Shown: positions 10,295-52,085, counted from the first letter of the stretch. The stretch is 64,000 bases of DNA from Candidatus Aenigmatarchaeota archaeon (GCA_043824495.1 JBDRSV010000024.1:96001-160000), one strand, 5' to 3'. Made by a program: numbers and translations. Notes: generated by a model not told the origin, from the sequence alone.

Positions 10295-10320
10295 TTATAT
10301 CCCTCTAATTAGACAATATA
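10295..10320. repeat. Block-end motif, copy 1 (block A)
   Basis: TTATATCCCTCTAATTAGACAATATA. Confidence 0.85.
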
Positions 10321-10322
10321 AA

Positions 10323-10353
10323 ACAATCAGGTGCCGAGTGCACACCTAATTGT
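10323..10353 (-). terminator. Terminal hairpin of block A
   Basis: Minus strand ACAATTAGGTG-loop-CACCTGATTGT followed by TTT. Confidence 0.6.
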
Positions 10354-10370
10354 CCTTGCCAATCCTCTTC

Positions 10371-11477
10371 TCATCTCAGCTTCAAAAACGCTATATGAGG
10401 TGCAGGCAGCCACTTGACTAACGATTCAGTCCAAGAGAAAGACCATTTCAGCTTCTTCTTCATCTCGTGAACCTTCATACATTTCACCGAGACTAGATTC
10501 CAGTTCAGGATGCCGAAAGCTGTGCCCAAGAGACCACCGACAAGCATAACGAAGCCCTGTCCTACAAGATCCATTCCGGCGGAGGAAACGAGAAATTTGT
10601 AAGCGAGAAATCCGCCCAAGACTCCGTCAACTGCACACAACACTCTCTGGAAACAGTGAACCATCTTGATGATGTTCCAGATAAACTGACCGATAAATGT
10701 GAGGACCACCGAGATGCACACCAAGACAACGAAAATGACGGTCAGTGCAGTGAGAATTGGGTACCAGACAGAAAGTAGAAGCAAACTGAAGAGAATGTAT
10801 CCCATCGCGTTGAGATACCCGAGTTTTATTTCTCGGCGGTTCTTCTCCTCAAGGAAATACCTCCTTCTTAACACACCGATGTCGTATTTTTGGTCCGTGT
10901 GTCTGCTTATTCCGAGAGCCTCCCCAATACTCTTATAGTTGTACAAAACGTCTTCCCCGCTAGCGTCTTTCTTATCGACCATCATGAAAGGATAGAAGAA
11001 CCTTCCGCGATCACGACTTCCAACAAAAGCGAGGAAAGAAAGAACGCCGGAAAAGATCACAACACAGGCACCAGAGAGCGCCAACAGAAGAATGCTGCTG
11101 AGAGCGAGTTGAAGGATGTTCAGTGTTTCAGCATCTGCGAAAAGACCGGAAAATATGTGATGTGCTGGCCACAAGCCGAGCACAAGACTCGGAAAAAGGA
11201 ACGGGTGTGGCTTCGAGCATAACCAGTCCTTGGCTTTTCCGTAGTTGTCTCTGATATAAAACGGCCAAGTTCCGATATCATCCAACATCTCTCCGAGCAT
11301 CACTTGGATCGCTTTGGCCACCTCACGGAGGTCGTAACCAAAATAACCAGCTGCTCCGCCGGCCAGGAAAGCAGCAACCCACATGTACAACTTGTCCGGC
11401 ATCAGCCACATGGCAGTTGCACAGAACACGATGCCTCCAATGAAGCATCCGATTCCGATCTTCATCCAATCTTTCAT
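10371..11477 (-). CDS. Multi-pass membrane hypothetical protein
   Basis: 368 aa, many TM segments, SD AGGAGA. Confidence 0.8.
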   Translation of the reverse strand: MKDWMKIGIGCFIGGIVFCATAMWLMPDKLYMWVAAFLAGGAAGYFGYDLREVAKAIQVMLGEMLDDIGTWPFYIRDNYGKAKDWLCSKPHPFLFPSLVLGLWPAHHIFSGLFADAETLNILQLALSSILLLALSGACVVIFSGVLSFLAFVGSRDRGRFFYPFMMVDKKDASGEDVLYNYKSIGEALGISRHTDQKYDIGVLRRRYFLEEKNRREIKLGYLNAMGYILFSLLLLSVWYPILTALTVIFVVLVCISVVLTFIGQFIWNIIKMVHCFQRVLCAVDGVLGGFLAYKFLVSSAGMDLVGQGFVMLVGGLLGTAFGILNWNLVSVKCMKVHEMKKKLKWSFSWTESLVKWLPAPHIAFLKLR

Positions 11478-11544
11478 GGCGAAAATCTCCTTCTCGTTGT
11501 ATTTCTTTGTTTATAGTTATCGTCCTAGAATTAATTCAAAACAA

Positions 11545-12051
11545 TCATATCTGCAAAGGTTCAAGCAGATACATCAGACTTCGGTCTCGTAATTCTGTCC
11601 TCTTATAAGGAGGGAGATCTATGAGACAAAGACTGGAAATACTCACGTGCATGGTTTGATACTTGGTTTCGTCTGCTTGGTACATTCCCGTAAAGATTAT
11701 ATTATTCAGGACAAACCCGGAAACTACTGTCCAGATCCAGAATGCCATCCATCCATCGTACAAGAAGACGCTGGCAATCGCTGAAATGATTGCACCCACT
11801 GCGAGAACACCTACCTCAAAGAGAAGCATCGTAAAGATATCTCCCACGGGGTCGTTTTTGTCCTCTTCCCACCAATCCTCCATGACGAGTTCGTGGATAA
11901 TCATGTCAATGAGATTCTGCCTGTTCTGCATTTTCTCGTGGTAGGCTATGAAACGAGTTGGTTGACGAATGTTGTGCCAGATGATCAATCCAATTGGCAC
12001 CCAGATGACTGCTGTAGTGACAAGCAGCCAGAGAACTACTCTAGTTTCCAT
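11545..12051 (-). CDS. Membrane hypothetical protein
   Basis: SD GGAGGGG before ATG 12051; three hydrophobic segments. Confidence 0.7.
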   Translation of the reverse strand: METRVVLWLLVTTAVIWVPIGLIIWHNIRQPTRFIAYHEKMQNRQNLIDMIIHELVMEDWWEEDKNDPVGDIFTMLLFEVGVLAVGAIISAIASVFLYDGWMAFWIWTVVSGFVLNNIIFTGMYQADETKYQTMHVSISSLCLIDLPPYKRTELRDRSLMYLLEPLQI

Positions 12052-12275
12052 GTCCCCTCCAGGATTGATTGTTAGAAAAAATACTAGTATAATCACTCTC
12101 GTTAATTGACATTTCTGTCTTTCGTTGTCGTAGAGTATTGATTCCTAAATTACAGATGATGACTTTACCTCGAACAAGAATCTTGTGCCAGGTGCTAAAA
12201 GTTGTCAGCGATGATAAATGTGGAACATGATGCATAGAATTTAACCTAAAATTTTATAAACCTATACAAAACCTT

Positions 12276-12300
12276 TTTATACCTCTTAATTGACAATATA
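12276..12300. repeat. Degenerate block-end motif, copy 2
   Basis: TTTATACCTCTTAATTGACAATATA; aligns with one gap. Confidence 0.45.
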
Positions 12301-12304
12301 TAGT

Positions 12305-12694
12305 ATGAAGAAAAAAGCAAAGAGGACCACAAAGAAAACAGTGAAAAAACCAGTCAAGAAAATAAAAATAGAAAAGAGAGTAACACCAAAACCAAAAAAA
12401 GAAGAGAAAATTAAATGTCCTTATTGTAAGAGTTCTAGAGTGGTTTGGAGAGGATATAGATACAACGAAAAGACTGACAAGCACTTAAGATTATGTAACA
12501 ACTGTAAGAGAAAGTTCACAAAAAGAGACGAGTTCTTCCGTATGAGATTCGGTGAAGAAGAGATAAAAAGAGCTGTGGAATTATACAAGAAAGGTTATTC
12601 TTCTGCAGAAGTAGTTCAGAACCTGAAAAGAAATCATGGAATAAAGGTTTCAAGATGGACTGTGATCTGTTGGCATAAGAGATACACTAAGTAA
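12305..12694 (+). pseudogene. N-terminal zinc-ribbon + HTH fragment of an IS6/IS1-like transposase, no DDE domain
   Basis: CPYC.S..V...G.R......LC..C.RKFT, then AVELY..G.S...V...L......VSRWTV..W; ends before any catalytic domain. Confidence 0.65.
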
Positions 12695-12713
12695 TTATTT
12701 TTTTTATCAGTTA

Positions 12714-12736
12714 TTATATCCCTTTAAATGGACAAT
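12714..12736. repeat. Block-end motif, copy 3 (block B)
   Basis: TTATATCCCTTTAAATGGACAAT. Confidence 0.85.
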
Positions 12737-12741
12737 GCAAA

Positions 12742-12778
12742 GGGAGAGGTGCAGTATTCCACATCTGCACACTCTCCC
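12742..12778 (-). terminator. Terminal hairpin of block B
   Basis: GGGAGAG-GTGCAG...CTGCAC-A-CTCTCCC; TTT follows on the minus strand. Confidence 0.7.
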
Positions 12779-12809
12779 ACCACATCACCTTTTCAGGCTT
12801 TGCAGATTT

Positions 12810-14684
12810 TTACTTCAGAAGCGTCATCTTTTTGCTTTCCGTCAGGCTGGCCGTTTGCAACCGATAGAAGTACATACCGGACGCGACGGCCTTACCGTAG
12901 CGGTCGGTTCCGTCCCAGCTAACCTGATGTGTTCCTTCGGGCTGGGACCCGTTGACGAGAGTGGCAACGTTGCGGCCGAGGATATCAAAGACCTCTAGCT
13001 TTACGTCTCCTCCCTGAGTCAACTGATAGGAAATCACGGTTCCGGCGTTGAAGGGGTTCGGGTAGTTCTGGTTCAAGCTGAATGATGTAGGAACGGCTCC
13101 TGTTGTCTTGTACGCGATGTTCAGCGTACCTAATGGAATCCACCCAGCCGGAACTGTCCGGCTGTTGTTGATCTCGTCAGCTATCGTTTTGGCCAACTCG
13201 TGATCGCCGAATGGATCGTCGATCAAGTTGTCGCAGTATGTTACCGCCTGTGACACAGTCGCGCCGTCATCGCTAATCACAGCGGTTTGTGCCAGTTTGC
13301 CGCTAGCGACATTGAGTAGCAAAGCCATGAGTTGCTGTCTGGCTCGATCAATCATGTCAACGCTGCCCTTGAGGTTCAGCAACGTCTTCGCGACTTCGAG
13401 CTTGTCTTCACAAAGATCCGACACGGGTGGATCGTACACGACGACCTCGTTCACTGCGTTCGAGTTGAAGTGGCCCGCGATGAGGTCGAGATAGCTACAC
13501 AGAGTTGAAGCATCGATTTGCGCGCGGCCATTCCCACCAGTAGCGACGCCGACGTTGTGTTTCCAGAAGCCGATTGTTCGTTGTTCTCCAGCGTCTGACG
13601 GGCATCCCAATTCAAAGTCGATTTGGGCTGTGCCTTCACAATCGAGATCGACGGACTGTTCGCTCGGAAATGCCGTATACCCGAGGGGGCCAACAAATGA
13701 TACCATGTAGCTGGCCTCACCCGGGAGGTTCTCGAAATCGTAGTAACCGGCTTCATCAGTCACAGCCGATTCTACAAGTACACCGGTGGCATCGAAGACA
13801 TCAATCGTGATACCAAGAACAGAGCAGTCAGCACTCAGTGTGCCCTCAATTGCGGCGAAGCATTCTTCCTCTCCACCTCCGCATGCACACGTTCCATCTT
13901 CCACCTCAATGGCGGTGATGGTGTTGTCGTAGGCGTCCTTTGACCAGACGACGGTCAACGGCGCGAAGTTGATGACGTCGCATTCGAGATCCTCATCCCG
14001 ACCACCGATCGTCGCGAAGTCACTGAGATACACGCCCGTTGTCTTGTCAATGCGAACGATGTTGCCCAGACCATCGCGCCCGATGTAAAGGGTGTTCCCC
14101 GTCCCAACAATAACACCACTTATTCGATCCAGTGTATTGCCGGCCGCGTCGGTCGGATACAACGTTCCCAGATAGGCTCCCGAGCCCGCATCGAAGTGGT
14201 CAATGCCCGTTGATACATCATCGGAAACCCAGACACTGTTATCCGTCGCATCAAAGCCAATGCCGTCGATGAAACAGAAGCCCGGTGTTACCACAGAAAA
14301 CTGGAAAGTGGCTACGCCGGTGGTGGGATCGATGAGATACACGTTCGCCGGACATTCGTTGTCACTGCCTCCCCAGATCATGTTGCGCGTATTGTCCCAT
14401 GCAATAGCGCCGATCGAAACTGGTGTGCCATCCGGTTTGAAAATGGAAACGAAGCCGAGATCGGTGCCGAATTTGTCTATCGAGTAGAGAGTTGGGTCGA
14501 AAGAGTTGGTGTAGAAAATCACACCATCACATCCAACTGCAACACCGATACCGACACCAGACGAGCTTGGAACAGGAACTGTGACGTTCGTGATGACATC
14601 ACCGGGAGCTGCCATTGACGTAGCGGTGATAGCGGTGAAGAGGCAGAACACAACAAGCGCAGTGAAAGCTGTGAGACGCTTCAT
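12810..14684 (-). CDS. Secreted bacterial-type protein: beta-propeller-like domain, carboxypeptidase-regulatory-like domain, C-terminal T9SS type A / FlgD-Ig sorting domain
   Basis: Signal peptide; C-terminal FSLNQNYPNPFN..T.ISY.L...V.L.VFDILGR.V.TLV.G....G...V.WDG....G..VASG.YFYRL......KKM.LLK. Confidence 0.9.
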   Translation of the reverse strand: MKRLTAFTALVVFCLFTAITATSMAAPGDVITNVTVPVPSSSGVGIGVAVGCDGVIFYTNSFDPTLYSIDKFGTDLGFVSIFKPDGTPVSIGAIAWDNTRNMIWGGSDNECPANVYLIDPTTGVATFQFSVVTPGFCFIDGIGFDATDNSVWVSDDVSTGIDHFDAGSGAYLGTLYPTDAAGNTLDRISGVIVGTGNTLYIGRDGLGNIVRIDKTTGVYLSDFATIGGRDEDLECDVINFAPLTVVWSKDAYDNTITAIEVEDGTCACGGGEEECFAAIEGTLSADCSVLGITIDVFDATGVLVESAVTDEAGYYDFENLPGEASYMVSFVGPLGYTAFPSEQSVDLDCEGTAQIDFELGCPSDAGEQRTIGFWKHNVGVATGGNGRAQIDASTLCSYLDLIAGHFNSNAVNEVVVYDPPVSDLCEDKLEVAKTLLNLKGSVDMIDRARQQLMALLLNVASGKLAQTAVISDDGATVSQAVTYCDNLIDDPFGDHELAKTIADEINNSRTVPAGWIPLGTLNIAYKTTGAVPTSFSLNQNYPNPFNAGTVISYQLTQGGDVKLEVFDILGRNVATLVNGSQPEGTHQVSWDGTDRYGKAVASGMYFYRLQTASLTESKKMTLLK

Positions 14685-15228
14685 GGATTTTTATTCCTTA
14701 GGTTGTGAGGGAAATATGACCCTCCGGGTTTGTTTTTCGATTAGTTTCTGATTGTTTGTCGTTTACCACGTTTCCAAGTTAAGGTCCGCGAATCGCTATT
14801 TTCATTGGCATCCTCTCTTTGGGTTAATGTTGTCCGCACAAATTGCGGGATTAAAAGAAGGAAAGACACAAAAGATAGAGTATGTCTTATGTAGACTGAG
14901 AGTAAAATCATTCGAAGAATAAAGCTAATACTATTAAAACAAACATGCATGTTTGATGTGTTTCTTTTCATGTTTTTTGTGTTAGCCAATGTACCGTTTC
15001 TATGGTTAATTGGATTGATTGAGTTGCAATCAATACAAATTTAAATGATGTTCGAATGAGTAGCATGATTTAAATTGTATACAAAAATTGACGTTGATTC
15101 ATCGTCGTTTTTTTGTGTTTTGGTATTTTTTTTGATTCTAGCTTGTCGCTTTTGTCAAGTCTTTAACTCAAGTATATAGCTTACAGGTATTTAAATGTTT
15201 TCTAACACATTTTTTTTAATTTTCTTTC

Positions 15229-15250
15229 TTTTATCCCTTTAAATAGACAT
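15229..15250. repeat. Block-end motif, copy 4 (block C)
   Basis: TTTTATCCCTTTAAATAGACAT. Confidence 0.8.
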
Positions 15251-15257
15251 ATAAAAA

Positions 15258-15321
15258 GGCAAACGGGCGAAGATTTGGAGCCAAACTCTTCTTGATGTCT
15301 CACCTCCGCCCGTTAAATGCC
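15258..15321 (-). terminator. Terminal hairpin of block C
   Basis: GGCA-AACGGGCG...CGCCCGTT-TGCC; TTTTT follows on the minus strand. Confidence 0.65.
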
Positions 15322-15549
15322 GTTGTCCGGCCTATCAATTTACCCGCCGGTTAGGTGAGCACATGTGCTCGTGTCCCAGAGGCGCATGTTTTCATGCCCT
15401 CCTTTGCCGGGTTCTTACGCGAACGTGCTGCTTGACCGAGATAATGTAGCTGCCAGATTCCCCACAACCTTGTTATTGGTGGAACCGCGACAGCGGTCGG
15501 TCCAGTCCGTATGCATCGTAGCCTCACTTGGTGAAGGACTGCGAATCAA

Positions 15550-15579
15550 GAGACGGGGATTCAGAAGAATCCCCGTCTC
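15550..15579. terminator. Perfect 13-bp hairpin
   Basis: GAGACGGGGATTC-AGAA-GAATCCCCGTCTC. Confidence 0.55.
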
Positions 15580-16223
15580 ACGAGTTGACGGTTGGTACGA
15601 GATATATCAAAGGAAGTCTTTATGCCATTGGGTGCATTCCGAAACCTTTAGCCTCGTCCGTCTCCGAGGGATCCTATCAAAGGTTTCATAAAGGAAATTT
15701 CATGGACCTCGTTACGATAGGATCGGAGTGGCGTAAAGCCACGGCCAGAACCTCGAGGTCCCCCAGGATAAGATCACCGTTTGAATATGAGTCAGCGGTG
15801 AACGTAAGGGTGCTGGCGATTCTTCTTCGCATTCAAACCCTCCAGGGAACACTTCGTAATTTGTGTTGTCAGCGGCTGTTTACGAATCGGCGGTGATCGT
15901 TTCCACCACGGTACATGTCGGCGTGGTGACAAACGATGAAGAAGCGACTTCAAAACGCGCGCGGCCATTGCTCGGCGGCGGCGAATGAGCCCAGGCATTG
16001 ACGGCGGTCGCGGCGGTATTCATCCAGGAAGCGACCACTGGTGACCCGCGAAGGGTCGGTAATCGGTTCATAGAGCAAGCTCCATTTCTTCCGATAGGAA
16101 AATTCCAATCCACTTTACAAACTCTCGCCTAAACAGAAAGTATTGTCACATAACTTTCCGTCGCAAAAGAGAATGTGAAGAGGAAACAATTTCGTACACC
16201 TCGTCAAGAGATCGTCTCCATTT

Positions 16224-16589
16224 TCACCCTACATGGGCTAGGCGAGAGGATAGACCAGTTGCTGATAGAGATGTAGAGGGAACCGTTTTCATCCGAAGAT
16301 CTCTCCCGTCCCTCAGGGAGTAAGTTGCTCGTCCACCAGGTTCCCATACCAAGGGAGCTGGCAACTCTGCCATTCTCTCTATCCGACTCTCTGTTGTCAT
16401 CGCCACTACGGCAACAACTCTTAGCCTATCCGGCGTAGGATTATGAGAGTGTAGAGCGAATTCCTCGTTCCATGTTTGTTCTGTATCGCTGCCTGTTATG
16501 ATATCCAATCCTGAAAACGGGATTGGGTCAGCGGTATAAACAATACAGGAACCATATATGAGGTAGCAGAGTGTCATGATTCCCAGCAT
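16224..16589 (-). CDS. Hypothetical protein with hydrophobic N-terminus
   Basis: SD AAGGAG upstream of ATG 16589. Confidence 0.55.
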   Translation of the reverse strand: MLGIMTLCYLIYGSCIVYTADPIPFSGLDIITGSDTEQTWNEEFALHSHNPTPDRLRVVAVVAMTTESRIERMAELPAPLVWEPGGRATYSLRDGRDLRMKTVPSTSLSATGLSSRLAHVG

Positions 16590-19004
16590 GACAACTCCTT
16601 ACAAGGGCACATGGTTATATGGTAAATGCTCTCTCCGTCAACAAATCGTGCCCTCTAAGACATGTTTAGGAGAGAAAGGCGACAACTCATGAAGTGTTCT
16701 TCAGGTGGACCCGTCATCACTGTTATTGCGTTGACGGCCTTCTCCTTGACCCGGACTTAGACGTGTGGCTTTCGGTGTTTTCGCGGCGCGTTTCTGCTGT
16801 TTTGGACTACGCTTCTTGTTGCTCGGAAGCCCGTCTCGGGCACCACCGTGACACGTCATGAAAGACCTCGTTTGTGAGGAGTTCAGTTCAAGCTTGTGCT
16901 GGAACTGTTTGGAACGAGGAATTGTTACTCTTTACGGCGAGCGATTGTGTGTCATCGTAACTCCTTGACAATGGTTTCCACAAGCTCCAAAATAAAAAAG
17001 AGCTGTTGTTTTCAAATTCAGTTGGGAATCTCCTAGCCCGCCCCCAGAACTGACTAGAGGAGATCCCCAACTTTTGTACAGCGCACCCCGTGCATTGTTT
17101 TCAGGGTGGAGGGGCCCGGCGGTCAACTGAGCCCCTCACTGGACGAATCGGTCACAGATAACATGTTACGCATTACCGACTCGAAATCTATGCCACGGCA
17201 GTAGATGGAAGTGGTCGCATCTACCGCCGGGCTTCACGACGTTGTGCATTTTGTCGCCTTCAGCCTTACACAACGCCGTTATTTCCCCACCCACAGGGAA
17301 TTTAATATCGCGGGGCCTCACTCAGGAGACCCCGCTTCCGTTGGGTTTACTACCGAATTGTTCGGTAGCGTTCTTCCACGACAGACATACGCACATGCGC
17401 ACGTCTTCATTTCTTTGAGGACCTACTCATCTCCGATTTGAGTAGGTCCTCGGCTCCCCACAACCCCCCGATCAGCACCGGGAATTTTTTTGAGGGGAAA
17501 TCTGAGCAGATATCTCAGACTCCCCTCCCGTCAGGTCTACCGACCAGCACTTCCGGTTGGACGCCGGAAATTCTTTATTAGAAGGGGTTTCCCCTCTCCA
17601 AGAAACCCCTTCCTCTTCGGCGTAGCGCGTCTCACGCGCTTTAGTGCATCGATCCCCACCGATCAGGTAAAACCCTTGGATGGTTCTCTCCCCGAACCCC
17701 CACTGAAATATTTTGGAACCCCTCATAGATCCCCGTAATCTCCGAGAGGTTCCGACAGCAGCACCATACAAATGGGACTACCGTGACAATCAAAAATACC
17801 GGAATCCACCGCGTCAGAAGAGGATTCCGGTATTCTACATCGCTGGTTGTGTTGAGAGCTTACCCCTTACTGGTCTTAACGAGTATGTTACGTCGGACTT
17901 CCTTTCACCAAATATACGGGTCACTACAGAATACCCGATCGATCCGCTTTGTTGTCTTAATCTCACCAGCGGATAGTGACGCGGTTACAGCCAGCGATTT
18001 CGCCTTTATACAACAGGCGTCTCCAAACCAAAATGGAAATTGGAGTTGTTGCTTCCACACTTCCGGATTTCCCCCTCCGGTAAACTCTAAGGTACTGATA
18101 GGTGACCGCTCGTGTTTCTTGTGTTCGCAATTGCCGATTGCATCAAGCTCTTCGTAGATCTAGATCTGGAAGTAATTAGCAAACGATCACAATAAACAGA
18201 CAACTGGGAGAAGTCCATTTCTACCAGTACCTGGATTTTCTAACCCTCGGGAGGTGTGTACAAGCCTAAGCAGAGTTTGTCCTGTTGAATTGGCCCCGAG
18301 GGTAAGTGGCCTTCCGGAAGAGAATTGGTGAGGTCCTGTAACAGAACTCTATCTCATTCCGGGGTAAAGCTCAAGGCACAGCCAGAAGGAGACGTATTAC
18401 CTTGAGAAGTTGGTCTCCCGAGTGAAGAAATTCGAGATGTCCCATCGATGAAGGACATCTCTTCTCCACTCGGGCTCATTCGTCAGCCTGGAAGGAGAAG
18501 TGCAAGAGTTTTCGCGCAATTACTCTCTCTCCTCCCGGGAAATTTATGACCTCCTGGTCCGAAACTTGTGCCGCGGTAAACCAGAAGGCGTAACTGCTAG
18601 GCTATGTGACGGCCACAGCAGTAGGGATCGAATCCAATACACGAAAGACAGCTAAGACTAACTCTGTCTCGTGTGGTTTACGAGTAAAATTCAGAAATCG
18701 ATAGTCTTCGGCCTCTTCGAGGGAAACTGCTTAAGCGCTTAATTGCAGCGCGTTATGTTTCCTGGTAAGTGACCTGTTCTCTAGGATGTACCGAAGGCTA
18801 ACTTAGTTAGTCTCGGGAAATTCGCGTGTGATTGGTAGAAATGAAACATGAAATGTCCTTATATATAAATGTAATTTAATTACTTAAATAGGTTGATGGA
18901 TAGCTTTAAAAAGGTACTATTAAAATTATTTTTTTGTGAAGGGATCGATATACCAAGTGCTTCCAAAAATAAAGAGTAGAAAAAAATAAGAGTGAAAAAA
19001 GCAA

Positions 19005-21570: not shown

Positions 21571-22432
21571 AATAATTACCTCGAGTGACCATTTGTCACT
21601 ATCTGATAGTTAAAATATGTATAAAGGGTTTATAAAGCTTTCGGTTAGCTTGCAGTGTGCTGTTTTTGAGCGTAAAAATCGTGTACGAAAGACAATTTTC
21701 TTGGGTTTCCATGACTTTTGTGCCAACGAAAGACATATTCTGTCTTTAGTAAGAGAGTTAATAAAGATTTCTGTCTCGCGCCTTATAAAGGATCCGAATT
21801 GGATATTTTATATAGTAATTAATTACTATTGTAGAGATCTTTATTTACTTAAGTCTTTACATAAATAATTCTCAAATACTTTTTGTCTTTGCTAAAGTTT
21901 AATGCAGATTTTCCTCGAAACTTTTGTGGAAATTCTTGAAATCAAATGTCTTCTAGTTTTGCTAGAGCTTTTGAAGACATGGAAACTCTCATAAAACCCC
22001 AACCGAAAAGTATTTAAACCCTTTGACTATAATTTCACTATAGATTAGTGACAACAAATTAAGAAATGTCTGAGTTATGTGTGGTGTCAAATCCTACATA
22101 ACTATCTTTACAATCTACGCAACTTTGAATAAAAAGAATTTCGGGTTAAACTCGCAATTCTAAACTCAGAGAAATTGAGTGCACAGGAATTTAGGCGCGG
22201 CCTAAAATCCCCATAAGAAATCCAAAAAAATGACACGCTTTGTGTCAAAAAATGTGATTTGAGGGGGTTTGATTTCCTTAGCTCTGAGTATCTACTTTTC
22301 GAAAACCACGAAGACTCGCGTAACAATTCTAAGCAATAAATATAGTGAAATTCCAGACTTCTGTAGACTTTCGCTGTCTGACATAGAAATTAACAAGTTG
22401 ACAATAAACGGAAACTTCTGGGAGGGATTGTC

Positions 22433-22795
22433 ATGAGAAATATCATGAGCTGTGTTTTCCTGCTGCTCACATTATTCCTGGTGAGTTGTGCGAAAAGTGG
22501 TCCGGAGCTGGGGAGTGATATCCGGATCAGTGGAACAATCGTCGACATGAGCGAAGGAGGTAGTAGGGATTTCCTGATCCAGTCCGGAGGAAAACTCTAC
22601 CATTTCGGTACTCGACTGCAATTTAAATGGAGTAAACTTCGTGCGGGACATTACGTCACCGTGGATGGGAAGTTTGGGGGACCGTGCGAGGAAGCCTCAA
22701 TGTTCAGACGCTACATGTACGACGACGAAGGGAACTTCATCAAGTCCCTCGAGGTCTATGACATCATCCATGTTTCGAACGTGGAGAGGCAGTGA
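22433..22795 (+). CDS. Putative lipoprotein with OB-fold-like domain
   Basis: Lipobox-like FLVSC; SD GGAGGG. Confidence 0.7.
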   Translation: MRNIMSCVFLLLTLFLVSCAKSGPELGSDIRISGTIVDMSEGGSRDFLIQSGGKLYHFGTRLQFKWSKLRAGHYVTVDGKFGGPCEEASMFRRYMYDDEGNFIKSLEVYDIIHVSNVERQ

Positions 22796-22924
22796 TCCCA
22801 CTGAGTTCATCCAATTCATCGGGTGGACCCAGATGAGATTATTGTCTAAAGGCTAAATCAGCAGGCCTTGAATTGTTGGTAGGGATCATTGGAAGATTCC
22901 CAAAAACATGGCAAGGAGGGCAAC

Positions 22925-23077
22925 ATGTCGCAGGGAACCAAAAACACCAAAGACACAGGAACAAGAGCGTTTCTGGTTATCGACGGAACTACAGGAGACC
23001 TCATTCCTGTGAAAGCATCGTCTGGACGAAAAGCTGAGCAAATCGCCGGCAGCGTAACCAGACAATCCCGCAAATAA
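22925..23077 (+). CDS. Small hypothetical protein (50 aa)
   Basis: SD AAGGAGGG before ATG 22925. Confidence 0.5.
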   Translation: MSQGTKNTKDTGTRAFLVIDGTTGDLIPVKASSGRKAEQIAGSVTRQSRK

Positions 23078-23214
23078 AATTACCCACTGTGAATTCCCCA
23101 GGAGTATCATCCGCCCGGAAGATACTCTGTTCTCCCCCATACTACCATAGGCCACACGGAGCTCATCAGGTTTTCACTTGGTGGGCTCCAGTGAGATCTT
23201 TGGTGGTTAACGTT

Positions 23215-23290
23215 CCATAACCGTTTCATTCACAACCTTTTGCCGACCTTGTCTGCATTGCAGCTCAAGGAAGTGTGTAAAGGAAGGAGA
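23215..23290 (+). promoter_or_regulatory. Repeated structured 5' leader, copy 1
   Basis: Near-identical to 27737-27807, with a compensatory stem change. Confidence 0.6.
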
Positions 23291-23295
23291 GTGTC

Positions 23296-23997
23296 ATGTT
23301 ATTGCATGTAACAGTAATAAGCCGCGGAGACAGAACAACGATCGATGTTCCCAGAACAGAATTCAACTGGGATACCAATCAATGTCGCGTAGTTGAAGGT
23401 GCAGAGGAAGCTGAAAGAAATCTCGGGGTGGCGGAGAATCTCGAAATCCGTAAACCCGCGGCTTACCAGGGACCCTATTTATACTGTATTGTAGAGGTGG
23501 GGTTCGAGGAAATTTGTTTTCCCCCGACTTTCCTCAAGTGGATCGAGAATGTTCCCGAGGATGAGAAAAGAGCCATCCTTATCGTTCCCACCAAAACCAT
23601 CCGAAAGGCCGATGATAGTCACTATATGGGATCTATAGATCGTTATAGGTATTATCCTCATGGTGAAGTCTTCCTGATTGGTCGCAGAATCATCGTGAGG
23701 AACATCTACCTATCACCTGATAACATCAAGATGGTGGTGGATAAAATCCTTGCCCGACTGAGTGACGGCCTGTTCCTCCGGTTGGCCTTTGAGTTTCTCC
23801 AGGCTACGCCGATCAGTGACAATCCTACGGTGACTGGAGAACATATCACCATGTTGGATAATCTCTTCACGGGGACGCGTTCCCTTCGGAGAGGAGATTC
23901 AACTCGTCGCGAACGGTTCAATCATGTTCGGGCCGTGATTGGACATATGGCCAAACACGGGATAGTTCTGTCTGGCAAGATCGAACCCGTGAAGTAA
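23296..23997 (+). CDS. Hypothetical protein
   Basis: 233-aa ORF with SD AAGGAGA. Confidence 0.75.
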   Translation: MLLHVTVISRGDRTTIDVPRTEFNWDTNQCRVVEGAEEAERNLGVAENLEIRKPAAYQGPYLYCIVEVGFEEICFPPTFLKWIENVPEDEKRAILIVPTKTIRKADDSHYMGSIDRYRYYPHGEVFLIGRRIIVRNIYLSPDNIKMVVDKILARLSDGLFLRLAFEFLQATPISDNPTVTGEHITMLDNLFTGTRSLRRGDSTRRERFNHVRAVIGHMAKHGIVLSGKIEPVK

Positions 23998-24050
23998 TCA
24001 ACGGCTTGGAAACCAAGTCAAATCAACGACAATGAAAGTTGAGGTGTAAT

Positions 24051-24371
24051 ATGAATAGGCGAATACAGAGTATGATTGTGATGACTGCGACTTTGATAGC
24101 TGTTGCAGTCTTTCTCCAAGTCTCACAGCTTCACGCGGCACATTTGATGGCAACCGCAATTGCAATTGCGGTTGTGGTGATGATCGTTGTTAACATGGGA
24201 AGAGTTCCCAACACTCGGCAGAAGTTTCGGAACTTCTCTGTCGGAGCCGTTTTCGGGAGCATCTTCCTGTGGGAGTTGTTCAAGGTTACGTTCTTGAATC
24301 ACCCTGCGGCTCTTTGGAGTGTGGTTGTACTCGGAGCTGCGGCAGTCTCATTTCTGACGTTCCGCCGGTAG
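24051..24371 (+). CDS. Four-TM small membrane protein
   Basis: Hydrophobic; SD GAGGTG before ATG 24051. Confidence 0.7.
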   Translation: MNRRIQSMIVMTATLIAVAVFLQVSQLHAAHLMATAIAIAVVVMIVVNMGRVPNTRQKFRNFSVGAVFGSIFLWELFKVTFLNHPAALWSVVVLGAAAVSFLTFRR

Positions 24372-24385
24372 TACTGAAGTTCACC

Positions 24386-24432
24386 GGGGATCCCGATCAA
24401 TCTGGTTGGGATCCCCTCAACCTGACAATAAA
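24386..24432 (+). repeat. GGGATCC hairpin + CAACCTGACAATAAAC, copy 1
   Basis: Homologous to 25298-25344. Confidence 0.7.
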
Positions 24433-24469
24433 CTGTTGTTAAATGTTCCATTACACCAAGGAGGGCGCA

Positions 24470-25288
24470 ATGCGTCACCAACGTTTCATCACCACAGTAC
24501 TGGCACTCATGTTCTTGACTGTGCCGGCAATGTTCAGCAGTGCGGTTCTGGCCGATCCGATTTCATCCGGAGACGGTCAAATGTATGTGGTCCAACAGGG
24601 AGATTGGTTGACGCGGCCGATCATCCCGACACTCTACTCGGATGTGTTGAAGCCAGGCGACTTGAAGAGTGCTCTCTGGATCGCTGACATCTTCGATACA
24701 CTCAACATTAACATCACCCACCGCGACAAAATTCGGGCGTATGATACCATCATGGCGCCGTCATTCGCGGCGTTGAAGAAGTACAAACATCTCGCACCCG
24801 CCGACGTGGTCATCAACCTGTTCGCCACGTATGATATCGCGTCCATGGAACTTGTGGACGCCGAGTTTGTAAGAAAGCGCATCGAGGACTTTGAGGGTAC
24901 TTACTGGTACAAAAATCGAGCCGCGTGGGCCCGAATTTTCGGAGTCGGTAATGGCACGTATGTCTGCGGTGACACCGTGATGCCGTTCTCATGGTTCATG
25001 AGCTGCAATACGGACGGTAATACGGGAATGACTATCTCCATCTCCATGGACGAAGGAGATCTCACCGCAGTTCGCAAGGTTCCAGGTACACGTAACGGAT
25101 TCTGGGGAGCCAGTCGTGACAATAAGTTCACATACGTGGGCTTCGGCAACGACTGGATCGATCGTTGCGACTGGAATGACGAGACCGAGAGCTGGGACAT
25201 TCCACCAGTTCTGAATGAGATCGTCGGAACTCTCAACAACTTTCCATTCGTCCAGTATATGACCGTCGTCGCGTACGAACTGGAATAG
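24470..25288 (+). CDS. Secreted hypothetical protein (paralog 1)
   Basis: Signal peptide; SD AAGGAGGG; GNG.Y...F.W...NTDGN motif shared with the next gene. Confidence 0.8.
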   Translation: MRHQRFITTVLALMFLTVPAMFSSAVLADPISSGDGQMYVVQQGDWLTRPIIPTLYSDVLKPGDLKSALWIADIFDTLNINITHRDKIRAYDTIMAPSFAALKKYKHLAPADVVINLFATYDIASMELVDAEFVRKRIEDFEGTYWYKNRAAWARIFGVGNGTYVCGDTVMPFSWFMSCNTDGNTGMTISISMDEGDLTAVRKVPGTRNGFWGASRDNKFTYVGFGNDWIDRCDWNDETESWDIPPVLNEIVGTLNNFPFVQYMTVVAYELE

Positions 25289-25297
25289 TTGTTACAG

Positions 25298-25344
25298 GGG
25301 ATCCTGACCAATTCGGTTGGGATCCCTTCAACTTGACAATTAAC
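25298..25344 (+). repeat. GGGATCC hairpin + CAACTTGACAATTAAC, copy 2
   Basis: Homologous to 24386-24432. Confidence 0.7.
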
Positions 25345-25388
25345 GTAACATGTTAACAATGAATACCAACAGAGAAGGAGAAAGTCAA

Positions 25389-26714
25389 ATGTGTAACATC
25401 ATCATCCGTACCATCGTGGCACTGGCACTCATGGTTCTGATCGTGCCGGCCATCACCAACATCGCAATTGCGGACGGAACGCCGTGTGGTCTCACCGTAG
25501 GTAATGGCAACGACATCGATCGCGACTTCGTTGCATTCCTCAACAAAGAAGGAATCAGATGGTTAACAATCGAGGAATTCGTTGAGTGCTACTCCCAACT
25601 GATCGGTCCAGGTAGTACCATGTTGAGCACCACTCGGGGATATGGCTGGGGATATATTGACGTTCCTTTCAAGTTTGGCGATTCGGTCGCGTCTATAGTG
25701 AACATGGAGATCATGCCAGGCGTCCGGATCAATATGGCTTGGGATCAAGCGGTCATCTTCTACAAATATGCGAATAATCATGGAATGCATATTCTGAAGA
25801 AGACGGAGAATGACCGTGAGGTTCCGGCCTGGAGCGGCTTGATTGATGAAGCTACGGTGCGTCAACATGTCAACGGCTTCGAAGTGTCCGCGCAGATTCC
25901 GAGTGATGTTCTGGAATCGGATGTTGCGATTATCCGGATGCGAGATTTAAAGGACGCCTACTTGGCCGAGAACACCGACGTTATCGAGTCTTACCTCATC
26001 GAGAAGTTTGACCTCGACGACGATTCCGAGCCGTATTCTGACAATCGGCCAAATATATTTCATCGCAGTGGCGAAGTCTTACTGGACTCGGAGATGTTCT
26101 TCGTGTATGAAGGTCTGGAAATTCTCAATCTCATCATCAATGATCGGTGGATTGGTGTACGATTCCCCGGATCGACCTATATCCACTTCATCAACATCGG
26201 ACCGAGAAAAGTCCACGACTTGAATGCCAACTTCGTCGAGACGAAAACTCCGAACAACACCGGCGGTCAGATCAGTATCCCGCAGGATGTGATCGAAAAG
26301 ATGACGTGGATCGATTCCGTCTATTCGGATAGGATGTCCCCGAATCCGATGTTAGGTTTCGGAAACGGTGAGTACCTGGCGAGCTCTGGGATCGTTTCGT
26401 TCGCGTGGGTTGCCTGGACCAACACCGATGGCAACCTCCAGTTCTATCTCAATGTTCTCCTTAACATTGATCATCAGGTGACGATCGAGACTGTGTCTCA
26501 CTACGGTGGGCCTGATGTTTGGAGGGCGTGGAGTCCGAATCAGACCTGCACAGAGGTGGAGACTGGAAACGGCTGGTGTTATATTCACTGTTCCCAGTCG
26601 GAAAGTGGACCTCGAATCTGCGACTATAGACAAGCCTTGGACGATGCAGTCGCGGCGTTCAATGGCATCGATTTCTTCACGAACATGAAGGTGATCATGT
26701 ACACGGTGAAGTAA
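25389..26714 (+). CDS. Secreted hypothetical protein (paralog 2)
   Basis: Signal peptide; SD AAGGAGA; shared C-terminal domain. Confidence 0.8.
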   Translation: MCNIIIRTIVALALMVLIVPAITNIAIADGTPCGLTVGNGNDIDRDFVAFLNKEGIRWLTIEEFVECYSQLIGPGSTMLSTTRGYGWGYIDVPFKFGDSVASIVNMEIMPGVRINMAWDQAVIFYKYANNHGMHILKKTENDREVPAWSGLIDEATVRQHVNGFEVSAQIPSDVLESDVAIIRMRDLKDAYLAENTDVIESYLIEKFDLDDDSEPYSDNRPNIFHRSGEVLLDSEMFFVYEGLEILNLIINDRWIGVRFPGSTYIHFINIGPRKVHDLNANFVETKTPNNTGGQISIPQDVIEKMTWIDSVYSDRMSPNPMLGFGNGEYLASSGIVSFAWVAWTNTDGNLQFYLNVLLNIDHQVTIETVSHYGGPDVWRAWSPNQTCTEVETGNGWCYIHCSQSESGPRICDYRQALDDAVAAFNGIDFFTNMKVIMYTVK

Positions 26715-27002
26715 AGCCGAACGCCACGAATTACTAATCCGCTCTTCTTCCCAAAGAAGTGTGGCTAGTGTGAAAGGAGTATGGGAAGGTTCCACAGTAG
26801 TAGCATCAACGGCAAAAAGTAAAAGACAAAAAAATGAAGGCCAAACCCGAGGAGGAACTCGAAGTGAAGACGAAACGAAGGTCATGCCAATATCCCATTT
26901 CGCCCATGATGGCGACTCATATTCTCATAGTCTGACCGGCCGCCGGCGACGCCACGGGCCTCTTATATAGTTAGCGGGGCCCATCGCCAATGCAGTCAAA
27001 AT

Positions 27003-27083
27003 CCCGGGTAGGCTTCAACCCCTACCCGGGGTTCCAAATGAGCTCATCTAGTTCAGATATTTTCTAGGTGGGCCCATTTGGAA
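27003..27083 (+). repeat. Double-hairpin intergenic element, copy 1
   Basis: CCCGGGTAGG..CCTACCCGGG then TTCCAAATG..CATTTGGAA. Confidence 0.7.
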
Positions 27084-27147
27084 TTGTAAATGATTGTTGA
27101 CTGTTCAATGAGCGTTCCGAAAGGAACATTGCAAGGAGATTTTTATC

Positions 27148-27612: not shown

Positions 27613-27634
27613 GTCCGCGACATCACCAACCAAT

Positions 27635-27720: not shown

Positions 27721-27736
27721 TTGAGTTGTAGTAGAA

Positions 27737-27807: not shown

Positions 27808-27812
27808 ATTCA

Positions 27813-29804: not shown

Positions 29805-29822
29805 GCGTGTAGTTATCATTCA

Positions 29823-34379: not shown

Positions 34380-34384
34380 ATATC

Positions 34385-37111: not shown

Positions 37112-37248
37112 ATTCTAATAAGCTTTATCTTCACCAATAATTTCTGTTTCTCCTTTTCTGCCGCTGTACAAGTTCTGGTTCAGTGCGGTTCAACTTAGTT
37201 CAACTGAACTGTAGAAAACTTTATAAGCCCTATAAACAAGGATAATGT

Positions 37249-38268
37249 ATGCAAAAAAAATATTCAGCAGATTGGCTTGAAAAAGCTGAGATTGTGAAAA
37301 GAAAAATAAAGGACCTACAACTGGATCCAGAAAATGTTAGGTTTAGCCATATACCACAAATTCATAAGAGCACAAAAAACATAGAAGAAATAATGAAGGA
37401 GGATGACGGCATCTTTGACCTTTATGATCAAATACTTTCTTCAAATGGTATTATAGAGCCTATTGTAATTGATTCAAATAATATGGTCATCGAGGGTAAT
37501 CGAAGATTAACTTGTTTGAGGCTCTTGGATGACCAGGCAAAAAAAGGAGAATTAGATGATGAAGGCATATCTAGAACCCAGTTTGAAGAGGTGCAATGCA
37601 GACTCTTGCCTAAAATAGATGACGAAACAAGGGATCTTTTCCTTGCAACAATACATGTGAAAGGCAAGAAGCCTTGGAAAAGATTTAATAAAGCCAAGCA
37701 TATATACAGGCTTAACAGAATGCACAAAATAAGTTATGACGAAATAGCAAGACTTCTTGGGATGGGAAAAGCCACCGTCCAGAGAAATGTTTCTGTTTAT
37801 GTGGAGGTCAGTAAATATCACACAAGATTCTCTGACGATAAAGAATGGTTTAAGAAATTCATGCTCTATGAGCAGTTTTTTATGAGAAAAGATTTAAGAG
37901 ATTTTAGAGAAGATCAAGAAAACATAAACATTTTTGCTAAATGGGTTTATTCTGGAAAATTTCAAAATCATAAAGATATTAGAAGATTATATGAAGTCCT
38001 AAATGATGAGGACTCAAAAAATGAATTTGAAAAGACAAATATGGAGAACGCCATAAAAACATTGGAAACCAAGAATCCTGAGCTCGTAGACGCTGACTTT
38101 AAGAAAATAAACGACACTATAAGTGTTTTACAAGAAATTTCAAGAGCTAAGCTCAATGATATTGTCTCAAACCCAGAGAAAATAAAACTATTAAATTCGC
38201 TTGAGCATGAACTGAAAAACTTACTGATTGATATAGAAAGCAGAAAAGACAGCTTAAGGAAAAAATAA
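37249..38268 (+). CDS. ParB/Srx N-terminal domain protein
   Basis: L.LDP.NVRF, GI.EPIV.......IEGNRR...L, HTH-like SYDEIA..LG. Confidence 0.8.
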   Translation: MQKKYSADWLEKAEIVKRKIKDLQLDPENVRFSHIPQIHKSTKNIEEIMKEDDGIFDLYDQILSSNGIIEPIVIDSNNMVIEGNRRLTCLRLLDDQAKKGELDDEGISRTQFEEVQCRLLPKIDDETRDLFLATIHVKGKKPWKRFNKAKHIYRLNRMHKISYDEIARLLGMGKATVQRNVSVYVEVSKYHTRFSDDKEWFKKFMLYEQFFMRKDLRDFREDQENINIFAKWVYSGKFQNHKDIRRLYEVLNDEDSKNEFEKTNMENAIKTLETKNPELVDADFKKINDTISVLQEISRAKLNDIVSNPEKIKLLNSLEHELKNLLIDIESRKDSLRKK

Positions 38269-38269
38269 T

Positions 38270-50069: not shown

Positions 50070-50110
50070 ACGGAGTAATAATAAGAAATAATTTAAATAA
50101 GTTTTCCATG

Positions 50111-50392
50111 CTAAACAGAACCTATAATGATTAGAGCTACTACGATAACCAAAGCTAGCATAAGCATAAATATCTGTTTCCATGAACTGAAAAAGAATTT
50201 TGCCATGAAGAATAATATTATCAGTATTAGTACACCGGCTAGAATAGTTCCTTCTATACCTATGTTACTAACAGGGTTGAGAGAACCCATTAATTCTAGA
50301 AATAGACCAAAGATACCACTCAGTGTACTCATAGTGTTCCCTATAACAAGTTGTATCATTTCAAGTATCACAATCAATGGAGCATCTGCCAT
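50111..50392 (-). CDS. Small membrane protein
   Basis: Hydrophobic 93 aa. Confidence 0.65.
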   Translation of the reverse strand: MADAPLIVILEMIQLVIGNTMSTLSGIFGLFLELMGSLNPVSNIGIEGTILAGVLILIILFFMAKFFFSSWKQIFMLMLALVIVVALIIIGSV

Positions 50393-50417
50393 TGATTAAT
50401 AATTAGTCTGAGTGCAT

Positions 50418-51602
50418 TTATTTCTTTGTGAGGATCTCAACTATGTCTCCATCCTTGAGCTCGTACTCTGCACCCACTTTCTTACGATCTGTCTTCATTC
50501 CACCTATGAATTTATCTGCTAAATCTGTGTGGATTTTTCCAGCGAACTGTTTCAAATGAGTTCCTCTAGGAACTAAATGTACGTCTGGTAGAACATTTCC
50601 ATCTTTATCTGTCATTTTACCTATGTTTGTAACTGGATAAACAGCTATCATATCGAGTGTTTCAAAAACAGTATGATTCAATATATTTTGTATACCAGTA
50701 GATTCATATTTAACAAGAATTTTTTCTTTTATGAACTCTAAAGCTGAGATTTGTTTTGGTGTTAGTCTATGCGCAACAACTATCTCAAAGTCTTTATCTC
50801 CTGGATTATATTTGATGAAACCATGCTCATTAGCTTCTCTTAAAGCTAGTTCACACTCGGCTGTACATGGAATTATATGTTTATGTTTATCATGTAAAAG
50901 TTTGAAATTCTTCTGACCATCCTCTGTATCTATTTTATTTCCTGCTATCACAATAGGTTTGTTTCTTTTTCTTAGCTCACTTACTAAATGTATTAAATGA
51001 TCTTCTTTTGTGTGCACTTCTATGTCTAATTTCTTAACTTCGTCTCTAACAGTTTCATAATCTAATTGTAAACCTGACAATTGTTCGTAAATTAAATCTT
51101 CTAGTTTTGCATCAGTTGTTTCAGCTTTTTTAGAGAGTTGTTTCCAGTTGTTTTTTAATATTTGAAACATCCAATAATCTATTTCTCTAGGTAAGAAATG
51201 GATATCTTCTTCAGGATCATGCGAACCTGCTTTTACAGGATTACCTTCCCCGTCTGTTCCTCCAGATAGATCAACTACATGAATTAGTCCTGATGCTGTC
51301 ATAATGTCTGTTAGAAATTGATTACCTAAACCCTTTCCCTTATGTGCATCCGGAACAAGTCCTGCTATGTCTATAAGTCTGACTGGTATGTATCTAATTC
51401 CGTCAATACATTTAGAATTCTTAGGCTTGCAAGTAACTCCTTGTGTCTTACAAGGACATTCTGCTGTTACGTAAGCAACACCTTGGTTAGGTTTGATTGT
51501 TGTGAATATTCTGTTGCTTATTTCTATGTCTATCAGAGTAGCTGCTTTGAAGAATGTTGATTTACCTGTGTTTGATTTACCTACAACCCCTATTTGGATC
51601 AT
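50418..51602 (-). CDS. ychF: YchF/Obg-family GTPase/ATPase with TGS domain
   Basis: GK.N.GKSTFF.A.T, FTTI.PN.G, DIAGLVP.AH.G.GLGNQFL, NK.D. Confidence 0.95.
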   Translation of the reverse strand: MIQIGVVGKSNTGKSTFFKAATLIDIEISNRIFTTIKPNQGVAYVTAECPCKTQGVTCKPKNSKCIDGIRYIPVRLIDIAGLVPDAHKGKGLGNQFLTDIMTASGLIHVVDLSGGTDGEGNPVKAGSHDPEEDIHFLPREIDYWMFQILKNNWKQLSKKAETTDAKLEDLIYEQLSGLQLDYETVRDEVKKLDIEVHTKEDHLIHLVSELRKRNKPIVIAGNKIDTEDGQKNFKLLHDKHKHIIPCTAECELALREANEHGFIKYNPGDKDFEIVVAHRLTPKQISALEFIKEKILVKYESTGIQNILNHTVFETLDMIAVYPVTNIGKMTDKDGNVLPDVHLVPRGTHLKQFAGKIHTDLADKFIGGMKTDRKKVGAEYELKDGDIVEILTKK

Positions 51603-51637
51603 ATGATATATTTATTTAGTAAATTTAAAAACGATTC

Positions 51638-52006
51638 ATGGGCTTCAATTCCGGTAACCAGTTCAGAATTGCAGGTATACTTTTGATATTGGAAACTATA
51701 GCTCTTCTATATTTCTCTATCGTTCCGTATGCATCTATAGACACTGGGATAGAAGCATTGCGCCTCGGAGACTTCGAACACTTGATGGCTTATCTCATCT
51801 ATGCTCTTTTAGCTGAGCGAGTATTAAGTCAGACAAAATTCAAGAAGCATAGAGTTATACTAGCATTCTTAATTGCAGCAGCTTTTGGTGGAATAAATGA
51901 GGTTATACAATCTTTCATTCCTTTGAGAGAAGCAGATATGATTGATTTAGCCTTTGATACTGTTGGTTCTGTCATCGGTAGCTTTTTGCTTGGTCTTAAG
52001 AAATGA
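51638..52006 (+). CDS. VanZ-like membrane protein
   Basis: D.EH..AY, E..Q.FIP.R.....D...D..G. Confidence 0.85.
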   Translation: MGFNSGNQFRIAGILLILETIALLYFSIVPYASIDTGIEALRLGDFEHLMAYLIYALLAERVLSQTKFKKHRVILAFLIAAAFGGINEVIQSFIPLREADMIDLAFDTVGSVIGSFLLGLKK

Positions 52007-52020
52007 TTTTTTATAACCTT

Positions 52021-52046
52021 CTATATCCCTTTAAATAGACAATATA
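52021..52046. repeat. Block-end motif, copy 6 (block E)
   Basis: CTATATCCCTTTAAATAGACAATATA. Confidence 0.85.
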
Positions 52047-52048
52047 AA

Positions 52049-52085
52049 GGGGAAAGTGTGATTGGTGGTCACACTTTTTCTCCCC
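52049..52085 (-). terminator. Terminal hairpin of block E
   Basis: GGGGA-AAGTGTGA...TCACACTT-TCCCC; TTT follows on the minus strand. Confidence 0.65.

Follow-up and report, generated by a model that had tools for sequence, protein, structure and literature searches.

The question raised by the DNA analysed here is how a series of GC-rich blocks, each closed by the same short motif just past a terminator-like hairpin, came to lie in the AT-rich genome of an archaeon. The stretch (the window) comprises 64,000 nt of Candidatus Aenigmatarchaeota archaeon (GCA_043824495.1 JBDRSV010000024.1:96001-160000; G000:C24:96001-160000), whose genome, G000, is a 1.01-Mb assembly of 29 contigs with ~35% GC (guanine plus cytosine) and 80% completeness. 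A sister genome of the same genus, G001, was fetched almost whole for comparison, and genome and metagenome collections were scanned for the motif; the contigs with L numbers below (L338, L304, L141 etc.) come from there. As judged by sequence comparison, the motif is the terminal inverted repeat of an IS6-family (IS26-like, DDE) insertion sequence (IS) that circulates in DPANN archaea.

A first, sequence-only reading of the window had noted five copies of the motif. All five are present where it had placed them; the motif itself is longer than had been stated, spanning ~23 nt, TATTGTCTAWTTARAGGGATATA, of which the 8-mer noted earlier is the start. Taken alone as an enriched word, the 8-mer does not rise above chance (89 matches versus 81 ± 10 in shuffles); the 23-mer gave 0 matches in 100 shuffles. 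The copies are:

10296-10318, minus strand: motif copy A, an exact match to the 23-mer, preceded by ...GATTGTTTTA
12715-12737, on the minus strand as motif: copy B, the right repeat of an IS6-family remnant
15230-15252, minus strand: copy C, with 5 mismatches and with TTTTT and a weak hairpin ahead
31341-31363, plus strand: copy D, with one mismatch
52022-52044, minus strand: copy E, with two mismatches, missing from the empty site in G001

Genome-wide there are 19 copies in G000 and 17 in G001, and the scans found the motif mainly in DPANN archaea. Seven matches on viral contigs, none with a T run and 1 with a hairpin, look like chance. A dif site for XerA was considered and rejected: the arms of the motif do not form an 11-6-11 palindrome like that of Pyrococcus dif (sequence as printed in PMC2958812), with which only GGATATA is common.

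The identification of the motif comes from full elements of ~1.0 kb, made up of the motif, a promoter, orf1, orf2 and an inverted motif copy, and flanked by 9-bp direct repeats. Inverted motif copies stand at both ends of the elements on L338, L304, L273, L326 and L335, and four full copies (1001-1011 bp) have 9-bp direct target repeats, three of them exact and one agreeing at 8 of 9 positions. The product of orf1 (~97-99 aa) combines a zinc (Zn) ribbon with a helix-turn-helix (HTH) domain, while that of orf2 (~201-203 aa in L338 and L304) matches DDE_Tnp_IS240 with 39.1 bits (L338) and 42.1 bits (L304) at a cut-off of 27. One of the G001 copies is identical at 22/23 positions to the L267/L304 repeat. 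The norm for the IS6 family is a GG tip, cTGTt and caaa, with direct repeats that are generally 8 bp (PMC7986276); compared with this consensus, the motif shares the TGT core, has the tip GA, not GG, and lacks the caaa block.

When the bases preceding the motif were compared, the copies split into two classes:

GA-preceded class: 34 copies, 1 with a hairpin, 23 with a TATA box directly after
T-run-preceded class: 97 copies, 64 with a hairpin, 10 with a TATA box directly after

Hairpin presence differs between the GA and T-run classes (Fisher p = 2e-11). Copies of the GA class are ends of the 1.0-kb IS, and in the other class, that of the blocks, the outer tip of the repeat faces the cargo; two distinct joint classes exist. 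The sequence-only reading had placed a hairpin beside every copy: copies without one do exist, but as a separate class, the full IS ends with a GA tip.

In the window, an IS remnant lies between two of the blocks, named A and B:

12229-12737, plus strand: IS6-family remnant of ~0.5 kb between blocks B and A, with left repeat, promoter, orf1 homologue and right repeat
~12229-12253, plus strand: decayed left repeat of the remnant, whose tip GAT abuts the first base of the block A leader
12305-12694, plus strand: orf1 homologue, an AT-rich open reading frame (ORF) with its stop 20 nt before the right repeat

The remnant orf1 is 43% identical over 93 aa to the orf1 of L338 (E = 3e-26) and 40% identical to that of L304, and both ends of the remnant align to full IS copies, with orf2 deleted in between. 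Its right repeat is motif copy B, the tip of which abuts the terminator of block B. A 'degenerate motif' at 12276-12298 is probably not a repeat copy, as it aligns to the 5' untranslated region of orf1 in the full IS. Motif copy A, on the far side of block A, is an orphan IS6-family terminal repeat with its outer tip toward the block. Block A, flanked by the remnant on one side and motif A on the other, thus has at either edge the outer tip of an IS remnant, the two remnants being directly oriented, which is the layout of an IS26-type pseudo-compound transposon. The tandem junction C5_137363/140804 is a second probable case of this kind, and one of the tandem junctions on contig C5 has the appearance of a miniature IS of 70 bp. 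The assemblies of the genus hold no intact IS copy; they hold orphan repeats, one orf1-only remnant and perhaps one miniature derivative.

To what the repeat is joined can be read from the DNA upstream of it. A run of 2-6 T precedes the motif in 5/5 window copies, 19/19 copies in G000 and 17/17 in G001, and a strong upstream fold, set at -12 kcal/mol or stronger, was found for 15/19 copies in G000 and 16/17 in G001. When the folding energy of the 50 nt upstream of the motif was compared with that of windows 100 nt further up (Mann-Whitney), the means were -15.7 versus -9.1 kcal/mol in G000 (p = 3e-4) and -16.7 versus -8.2 kcal/mol in G001 (p = 8e-5). The hairpins of the window are:

10320-10356, minus strand: hairpin of block A, -18.8 kcal/mol, 15 pairs, also called by an independent terminator scan
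12742-12778, minus strand: hairpin of block B, -23.7 kcal/mol
15261-15300, minus strand: hairpin of block C, weak, -7.7 kcal/mol
31302-31338, plus strand: hairpin of block D, -18.5 kcal/mol
52047-52087, minus strand: hairpin of block E, -18.9 kcal/mol

The closeness of motif and stem, put at about 3-7 nt in the sequence-only reading, holds genome-wide, the stem ending 0-8 nt before the motif. The further observation that the hairpins are unrelated in sequence stands largely, except that several 3' arms read GATTGTTT, echoing the ATTGT of the motif. The structures have the form of intrinsic terminators, a GC-rich stem-loop with a T tract directly after it where a transcription unit ends, and the tract is shorter than usual because the motif begins inside it. 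Since the length of the T run varies from 2 to 6, it belongs to the variable cargo side, and the joint lies within a shortened T tract after what appears to be the cargo's own terminator, in agreement with the earlier placement of the joint and with the similar arrangement on a donor-like contig. Terminators occur at the corresponding position on the donor-like contigs L141 and L136, and none of the bacterial donor contigs inspected carried the motif natively. In three cassettes the leaders are 87-89% identical while hairpins and cargo are unrelated, which argues that hairpin and cargo were acquired together. In other genomes, three copies lie 2-10 nt after tRNA genes, so that the association is with 3' ends of transcription units in general.

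The DNA upstream of the motif also differs in composition from the DNA beyond it. Each window copy stands at the 3' end, in gene sense, of a block of 45-55% GC within DNA of 30-35% GC, and the same was seen for 19/19 copies in G000, where the upstream side is GC-rich (0.43-0.56) and the downstream side mostly AT-rich (0.32-0.45). Conversely, every long GC-rich segment of G000 terminates in a motif copy, the segments of contig C3 excepted. The genes of the blocks all point toward the motif, co-oriented with the hairpin; they have GGAGG ribosome-binding sites and signal peptides, and most are without Pfam families. Laid out along the window, the blocks are:

10319-12228, minus strand: block A, with a leader at ~12064-12232, membrane-protein genes at 11545-12096 and 10371-11477, and the hairpin
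12738-15070, minus strand: block B, with a leader at 14905-15070 and one gene at 12810-14684
15253-18855, minus strand: block C, with a leader at 18679-18855, 3.6 kb at 50% GC
22000-31340, plus strand: block D, with an AT-rich leader region and eight co-oriented genes at 22433-30890, ending in the hairpin at 31302-31338
52007-54318, minus strand: insert E, with promoter, leader at 54113-54275, genes at 53183-54085 and 52592-53137 and a small one, hairpin and motif

At its start a block has a TATA-like box and, ~25-30 nt further on, a conserved leader of ~170 nt that begins ATCATGYTCCACA; apart from TATA-like words, the 5' edges share no common 8-mer. Matches to the leader profile were confined to the blocks in G000, and four cassettes were matched in G001. 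A cassette comprises four parts: an archaeal TATA promoter, a conserved leader of ~170 nt, a bacterial transcription unit complete from ribosome-binding site through its own intrinsic terminator, and lastly the repeat's outer tip. Some cassettes are solitary; others form head-to-tail arrays with IS remnants in direct orientation between them. The leaders contain variable hairpins, often with CACGAAAGAC...GTCTTTCGTG stems, and recurrent CGAAAGAC hairpins; longer versions carry repeated TGACTTT words. A search of Rfam with the leaders and block C gave no match at the gathering threshold or at E <= 1, and reading the leader as an IS110-type bridge RNA was rejected, there being no DEDD transposase in G000.

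Block A (GC 0.42-0.51, GGAGG ribosome-binding sites, leader found by the nhmmer model) has a first gene that is paralogous to the gene of block C11_7151. The gene of block B encodes a secreted protein with a sorting domain of the type IX secretion system (T9SS; Pfam Por_Secre_tail and FlgD_ig). Over its 3.6 kb, block C has no ORF of more than ~125 codons and shows many hairpins; it may represent cargo in decay or, alternatively, a large non-coding RNA. Block D has a GC content of 0.46-0.54, and its 5' limit is approximate because the leader model missed its leader; a Pfam search of the block returned no families, and an atlas search with its 663-aa protein returned weak bacterial beta-propeller leads only (scores <0.8). 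The 300-aa protein of block E had no homologue among 46 family genomes. Outside the window, the GC-rich block C5_113436 contains a tRNA-Pro gene and a second tRNA-like gene with a called 4-nt anticodon (G000:C5:112123-112294; L006 2624-2795).

That the blocks are captured foreign DNA, as the sequence-only reading had proposed, is borne out by bacterial genes with Zixibacteria-like relatives and by two insertion sites that are empty in G001. For the M32 carboxypeptidase encoded in block C24:90150-94062, identity to a metagenome contig is 84% at the protein and 83% at the DNA level, and identity to a protein of a Zixibacteria metagenome-assembled genome is 72%; the best named relatives of the T9SS protein of block B are likewise Zixibacteria. 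The pair of thiolase and enoyl-CoA hydratase-like (ECH-like) genes in block C5:65130-68700 (B5) is the same two-gene operon as on the bacterial-type contig L141, where a terminator hairpin of its own follows 22 nt past the stop codon; in block B5 a different hairpin follows 5 nt past the stop, and the motif comes directly after. The closest donors are 72-83% identical in coding DNA, and homology to them stops at the ends of the coding sequences. At the G001 counterpart of site E, two convergent host genes overlap and the whole 2.3 kb (promoter, leader, genes, hairpin and motif) is missing; at site C5_122522, the downstream host-gene promoter is conserved in G001 and motif and cassette are absent. 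A site beside the HerA operon has a cassette in both genomes, with different first genes, and G000 and G001 have essentially no common cargo despite 17-19 copies each. These results show that the cargo is bacterial and that the cassettes are insertions. The host genes of the window are of archaeal type, among them a YGR210-like GTPase, a class I CCA enzyme, HerA and an intein-bearing inositol-phosphate synthase. In the last of these (42090-44615), the myo-inositol-1-phosphate synthase gene is split by an intein with a LAGLIDADG homing-endonuclease domain.

Joints in the U tract of bacterial terminators had suggested capture through RNA 3' ends, by reverse transcription primed at the motif, or through an enzyme that reads a folded single-stranded DNA hairpin in the manner of integron integrases and HUH enzymes. 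Neither proposal is supported by the identification of the motif, which as a DDE inverted repeat is not a primer site for a reverse transcriptase (RT) and not an attC-like folded site. The two enzyme searches that had been suggested gave the same answer: the sole RT of G000, on contig C10, belongs to a diversity-generating retroelement (DGR), the sole Y1_Tnp/HUH gene is an IS200/IS605 TnpA on contig C23, and neither is near a motif copy. The DGR (G000:C10:71679-75323; L022) encodes an RT of 350 aa and has a 47-nt variable repeat (VR, L022 583-629) and a template repeat (TR, 1176-1222) that differ at TR adenines. RNA-mediated capture could also take another form, in which terminated bacterial transcripts were copied to DNA by template switching between a vehicle RNA and mRNA, the cargo then running from near the transcription start to the U tract. 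Both limits of the cargo do resemble transcript ends: the 3' limit is the T run of 2-6 right past the hairpin, the leader ends ~0-40 nt before the first start codon in about six cassettes, block B5 is exactly one bacterial two-gene operon, and the joint is without the canonical IS tip. However, that distance is 70-300 nt in the other cassettes, the 9-kb block D contains internal terminator-like hairpins, the one RT present is that of the DGR, which has a VR/TR pair of its own, copies follow tRNA genes too, and the empty sites show that promoter and motif arrived with the cargo as DNA. The last two observations weaken the bacterial mRNA route, and we regard RNA-mediated capture as highly improbable.

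The regular arrangement of tandem cassettes brings in a DNA-level alternative, site-specific recombination. The motif and a few downstream bases would be the att-type site of a tyrosine recombinase, circular cassettes (promoter, leader, cargo, hairpin, motif) would integrate just past the motif in an integron-like fashion or like an integrative mobile element exploiting Xer (IMEX), and the match to the IS repeat would reflect a shared or co-opted binding site. At the tandem junctions, the motif stands a fixed 71 nt before the next leader start, which fits a circular form opened between motif and TATA box; the word AAGGTT is present at each edge of insert E, and integrons have been reported in Aenigmatarchaeota (PMC9668308). 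Seven tyrosine-recombinase matches, XerA among them, were found in G000, and one of the enzymes, with a C-terminal Zn ribbon (G000:C24:46596-47345; L010 911-1846), is convergent with the cassette of block C24_47420, its end lying 52 nt from the motif there. An integrase adjoins just 1/19 cassettes, however, and none of the recombinases reaches the integron-integrase cut-off, the best scoring 208.6 bits against the 265 of TIGR02249 and passing as XerA. The motif lacks R'/R''-type symmetry, and upstream of solitary cassettes no partner half-site was found, the scores being those of background with the exception of two tandem junctions. Elsewhere the motif is the end of a DDE transposon with 9-bp target repeats. 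We consider the recombination account improbable.

A further point of regularity lies downstream of the repeat. A TATA-like box follows ~14-25 nt past the motif, and a start codon, or else the start of a leader, lies at +43 to +47 (C5_122522, C5_9074, D, C5_137363), and copy D lies ~16 nt upstream of the TATA box of the host gene 40569-41336 once an inserted transposon is removed. This transposon, which lies between copy D and that gene, is:

31372-40521, plus strand: IS4/IS5-like cargo transposon, inserted 8 nt after motif D

It has terminal repeats GGCTTTGCACAAAAAC, a 9-bp target duplication AAGAGTTAA, a DDE_Tnp_1 transposase (39083-40093), a type IIG restriction-modification gene and a PD-(D/E)XK gene. 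The same terminal repeat follows the IS6 motif by 6-8 nt at each of its three left-end copies in G000 (the window, C5:1324 and C11:7182) and on the unrelated metagenome contig L275, and the motif seems to be an insertion hotspot of this transposon.

The promoter spacing would also suit a domesticated regulatory module, an orphan repeat bound by an orf1-like Zn-ribbon/HTH protein and kept, together with its TATA box, as a portable promoter or insulator; its position after terminators would then reflect the insertions tolerated by a gene-dense 1-Mb genome. In the full IS the repeat lies directly against the promoter of the transposase, orf1 survives without orf2, and a truncated U tract could be made up to full length by the T-rich motif tip. 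Copy E, however, faces the end of a convergent gene and has nothing to drive, the 0-8 nt spread in 36 copies is tighter than selection alone would be expected to leave, and the acquisition of bacterial operons is left unexplained; such a module seems to us quite unlikely as the account of the whole.

We consider it fairly probable that the cassettes derive from the IS6 element. An IS6-type transposase, acting in trans or since lost, would have built and moved the cassettes, the layout being the product of IS26-type cointegrate or translocatable-unit formation; the IS ends would later have been reduced to orphan repeats, and the repeat with its adjacent TATA box may now double as the promoter region of the downstream sequence. 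Several observations weigh against this origin. DDE_Tnp_IS240 genes were not found in G000, the assembly of which is 80% complete, or in G001; the four such genes in family genomes have other ends, and as a source of the motif these IS6 transposase genes were rejected, their flanks being without the motif within 3 mismatches. No target duplications surround the cassettes, including the cassette-type copies of the window. An inverted repeat beside the leader is clear only for block A and one tandem junction, and a matrix scan for inverted repeats at the leader start or 3' end of 17 leaders returned the background level and did not outperform a control with the matrix reversed. At the cassette joints the GA tip is missing; they read T run, one variable base and TATTGTC, and so differ from canonical DDE joints. 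A preference of the full IS for T-rich targets was rejected as the source of the terminator rule (T fraction 0.30 versus 0.37 in controls), and since full-IS targets show no T-rich or hairpin preference, a simple target preference fails to explain it.

The rule that the joint always lies in the T run is thus real but unaccounted for by the IS6-derived model. Our preferred account of it, held at modest odds, is targeting at the DNA level of transcription-unit ends, or tolerance for insertion there. A bolder account, which we judge rather unlikely, would be a dedicated platform for cross-domain gene capture derived from IS6, with a kept orf1 protein, orphan repeats and a promoter-leader module, in which bacterial transcription units would be joined at their terminators by a non-canonical reaction that recognises the terminator structure or the RNA 3' end, and would be expressed from archaeal promoters.

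By analogy, the closest known system to the cassettes is the IS26-type pseudo-compound transposon or translocatable-unit array. In common with the IS6/IS26 family (IS26, IS257, IS1216; PMC7986276) there is a terminal repeat with a TGT core; foreign segments lie between IS copies in direct orientation, without target duplications per segment, and the cargo varies at corresponding sites of related genomes. Unlike in IS26, the host is a DPANN archaeon, the cargo consists of whole bacterial operons, and the full element has 9-bp, not 8-bp, repeats, a GA, not GG, tip and a transposase split into orf1 and orf2. The IS copies beside the cassettes are orphan repeats or an orf1-only remnant, with joints that lack the tip dinucleotide. 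Each segment, moreover, opens with a promoter and leader that are conserved and closes at a terminator, neither of which is known from IS26, and the leader beside an IS tip is a further difficulty for an IS6 origin. What sets the cassettes apart from IS26-type arrays is the archaeal host, the whole-operon cargo, the conserved promoter-leader, the orphan tip-less repeats and the terminator rule.

Other systems share individual features. Integron cassettes with attC sites, including the archaeal integrons of Ghaly et al. 2022 (PMC9668308), are likewise head-to-tail, co-oriented and tightly bounded units with a hairpin-forming element at each 3' end, some of them solitary and scattered, and other mobile elements insert at their recombination site. 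Here, by contrast, what is conserved is a 23-nt linear DDE repeat rather than a folded R''-L''/L'-R' site, the hairpins belong to the cargo as its terminators, and every cassette brings a promoter and a leader of its own, with up to nine genes. G000 yielded no integrase of the IntI type, which has the extra domain, and in the 19 aligned copies, inspected by eye for attC features, the 23-mer lies outside the hairpin, with no complementary upstream partner and no GTTRRRY. For insertion at a recombination site there are parallels in IS1111-attC and group IIC-attC elements. Group IIC introns insert just past intrinsic terminators, and cassette genesis is reportedly addressed by a model of Leon and Roy; the likeness is an element end a few bases past a terminator stem of any sequence, whereas intron RNA domains, an intron-type RT and a GUGYG start are absent here and the end is a DDE repeat. 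Solo IS ends and outward-promoter miniature inverted-repeat transposable elements (MITEs) resemble the motif as short orphan repeats beside genes, with a TATA box placed for the downstream gene; they differ from it in lacking the strict one-sided link to foreign cargo seen here, the tip side being GC-rich in 19/19 copies.

The genomes of DPANN archaea are tiny, these organisms are believed to rely on other cells, and the routes by which they acquire bacterial genes are largely unknown. Here, 19 bacterial operon-sized blocks (~60 kb) lie in a 1-Mb genome in one common packaging, and a sister species has different cargo, partly at matching sites. The cassettes point to a concrete and testable vehicle for gene flow from bacteria to archaea, drawn from the relatives of IS26, a family best known for assembling bacterial antibiotic-resistance regions. 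If the capture platform were real, ~6% of a 1-Mb genome would have been built in this way. The strict joint at terminators, made without a canonical transposon tip, is not predicted for the IS6/IS26 family and could reveal a new mode of target selection.

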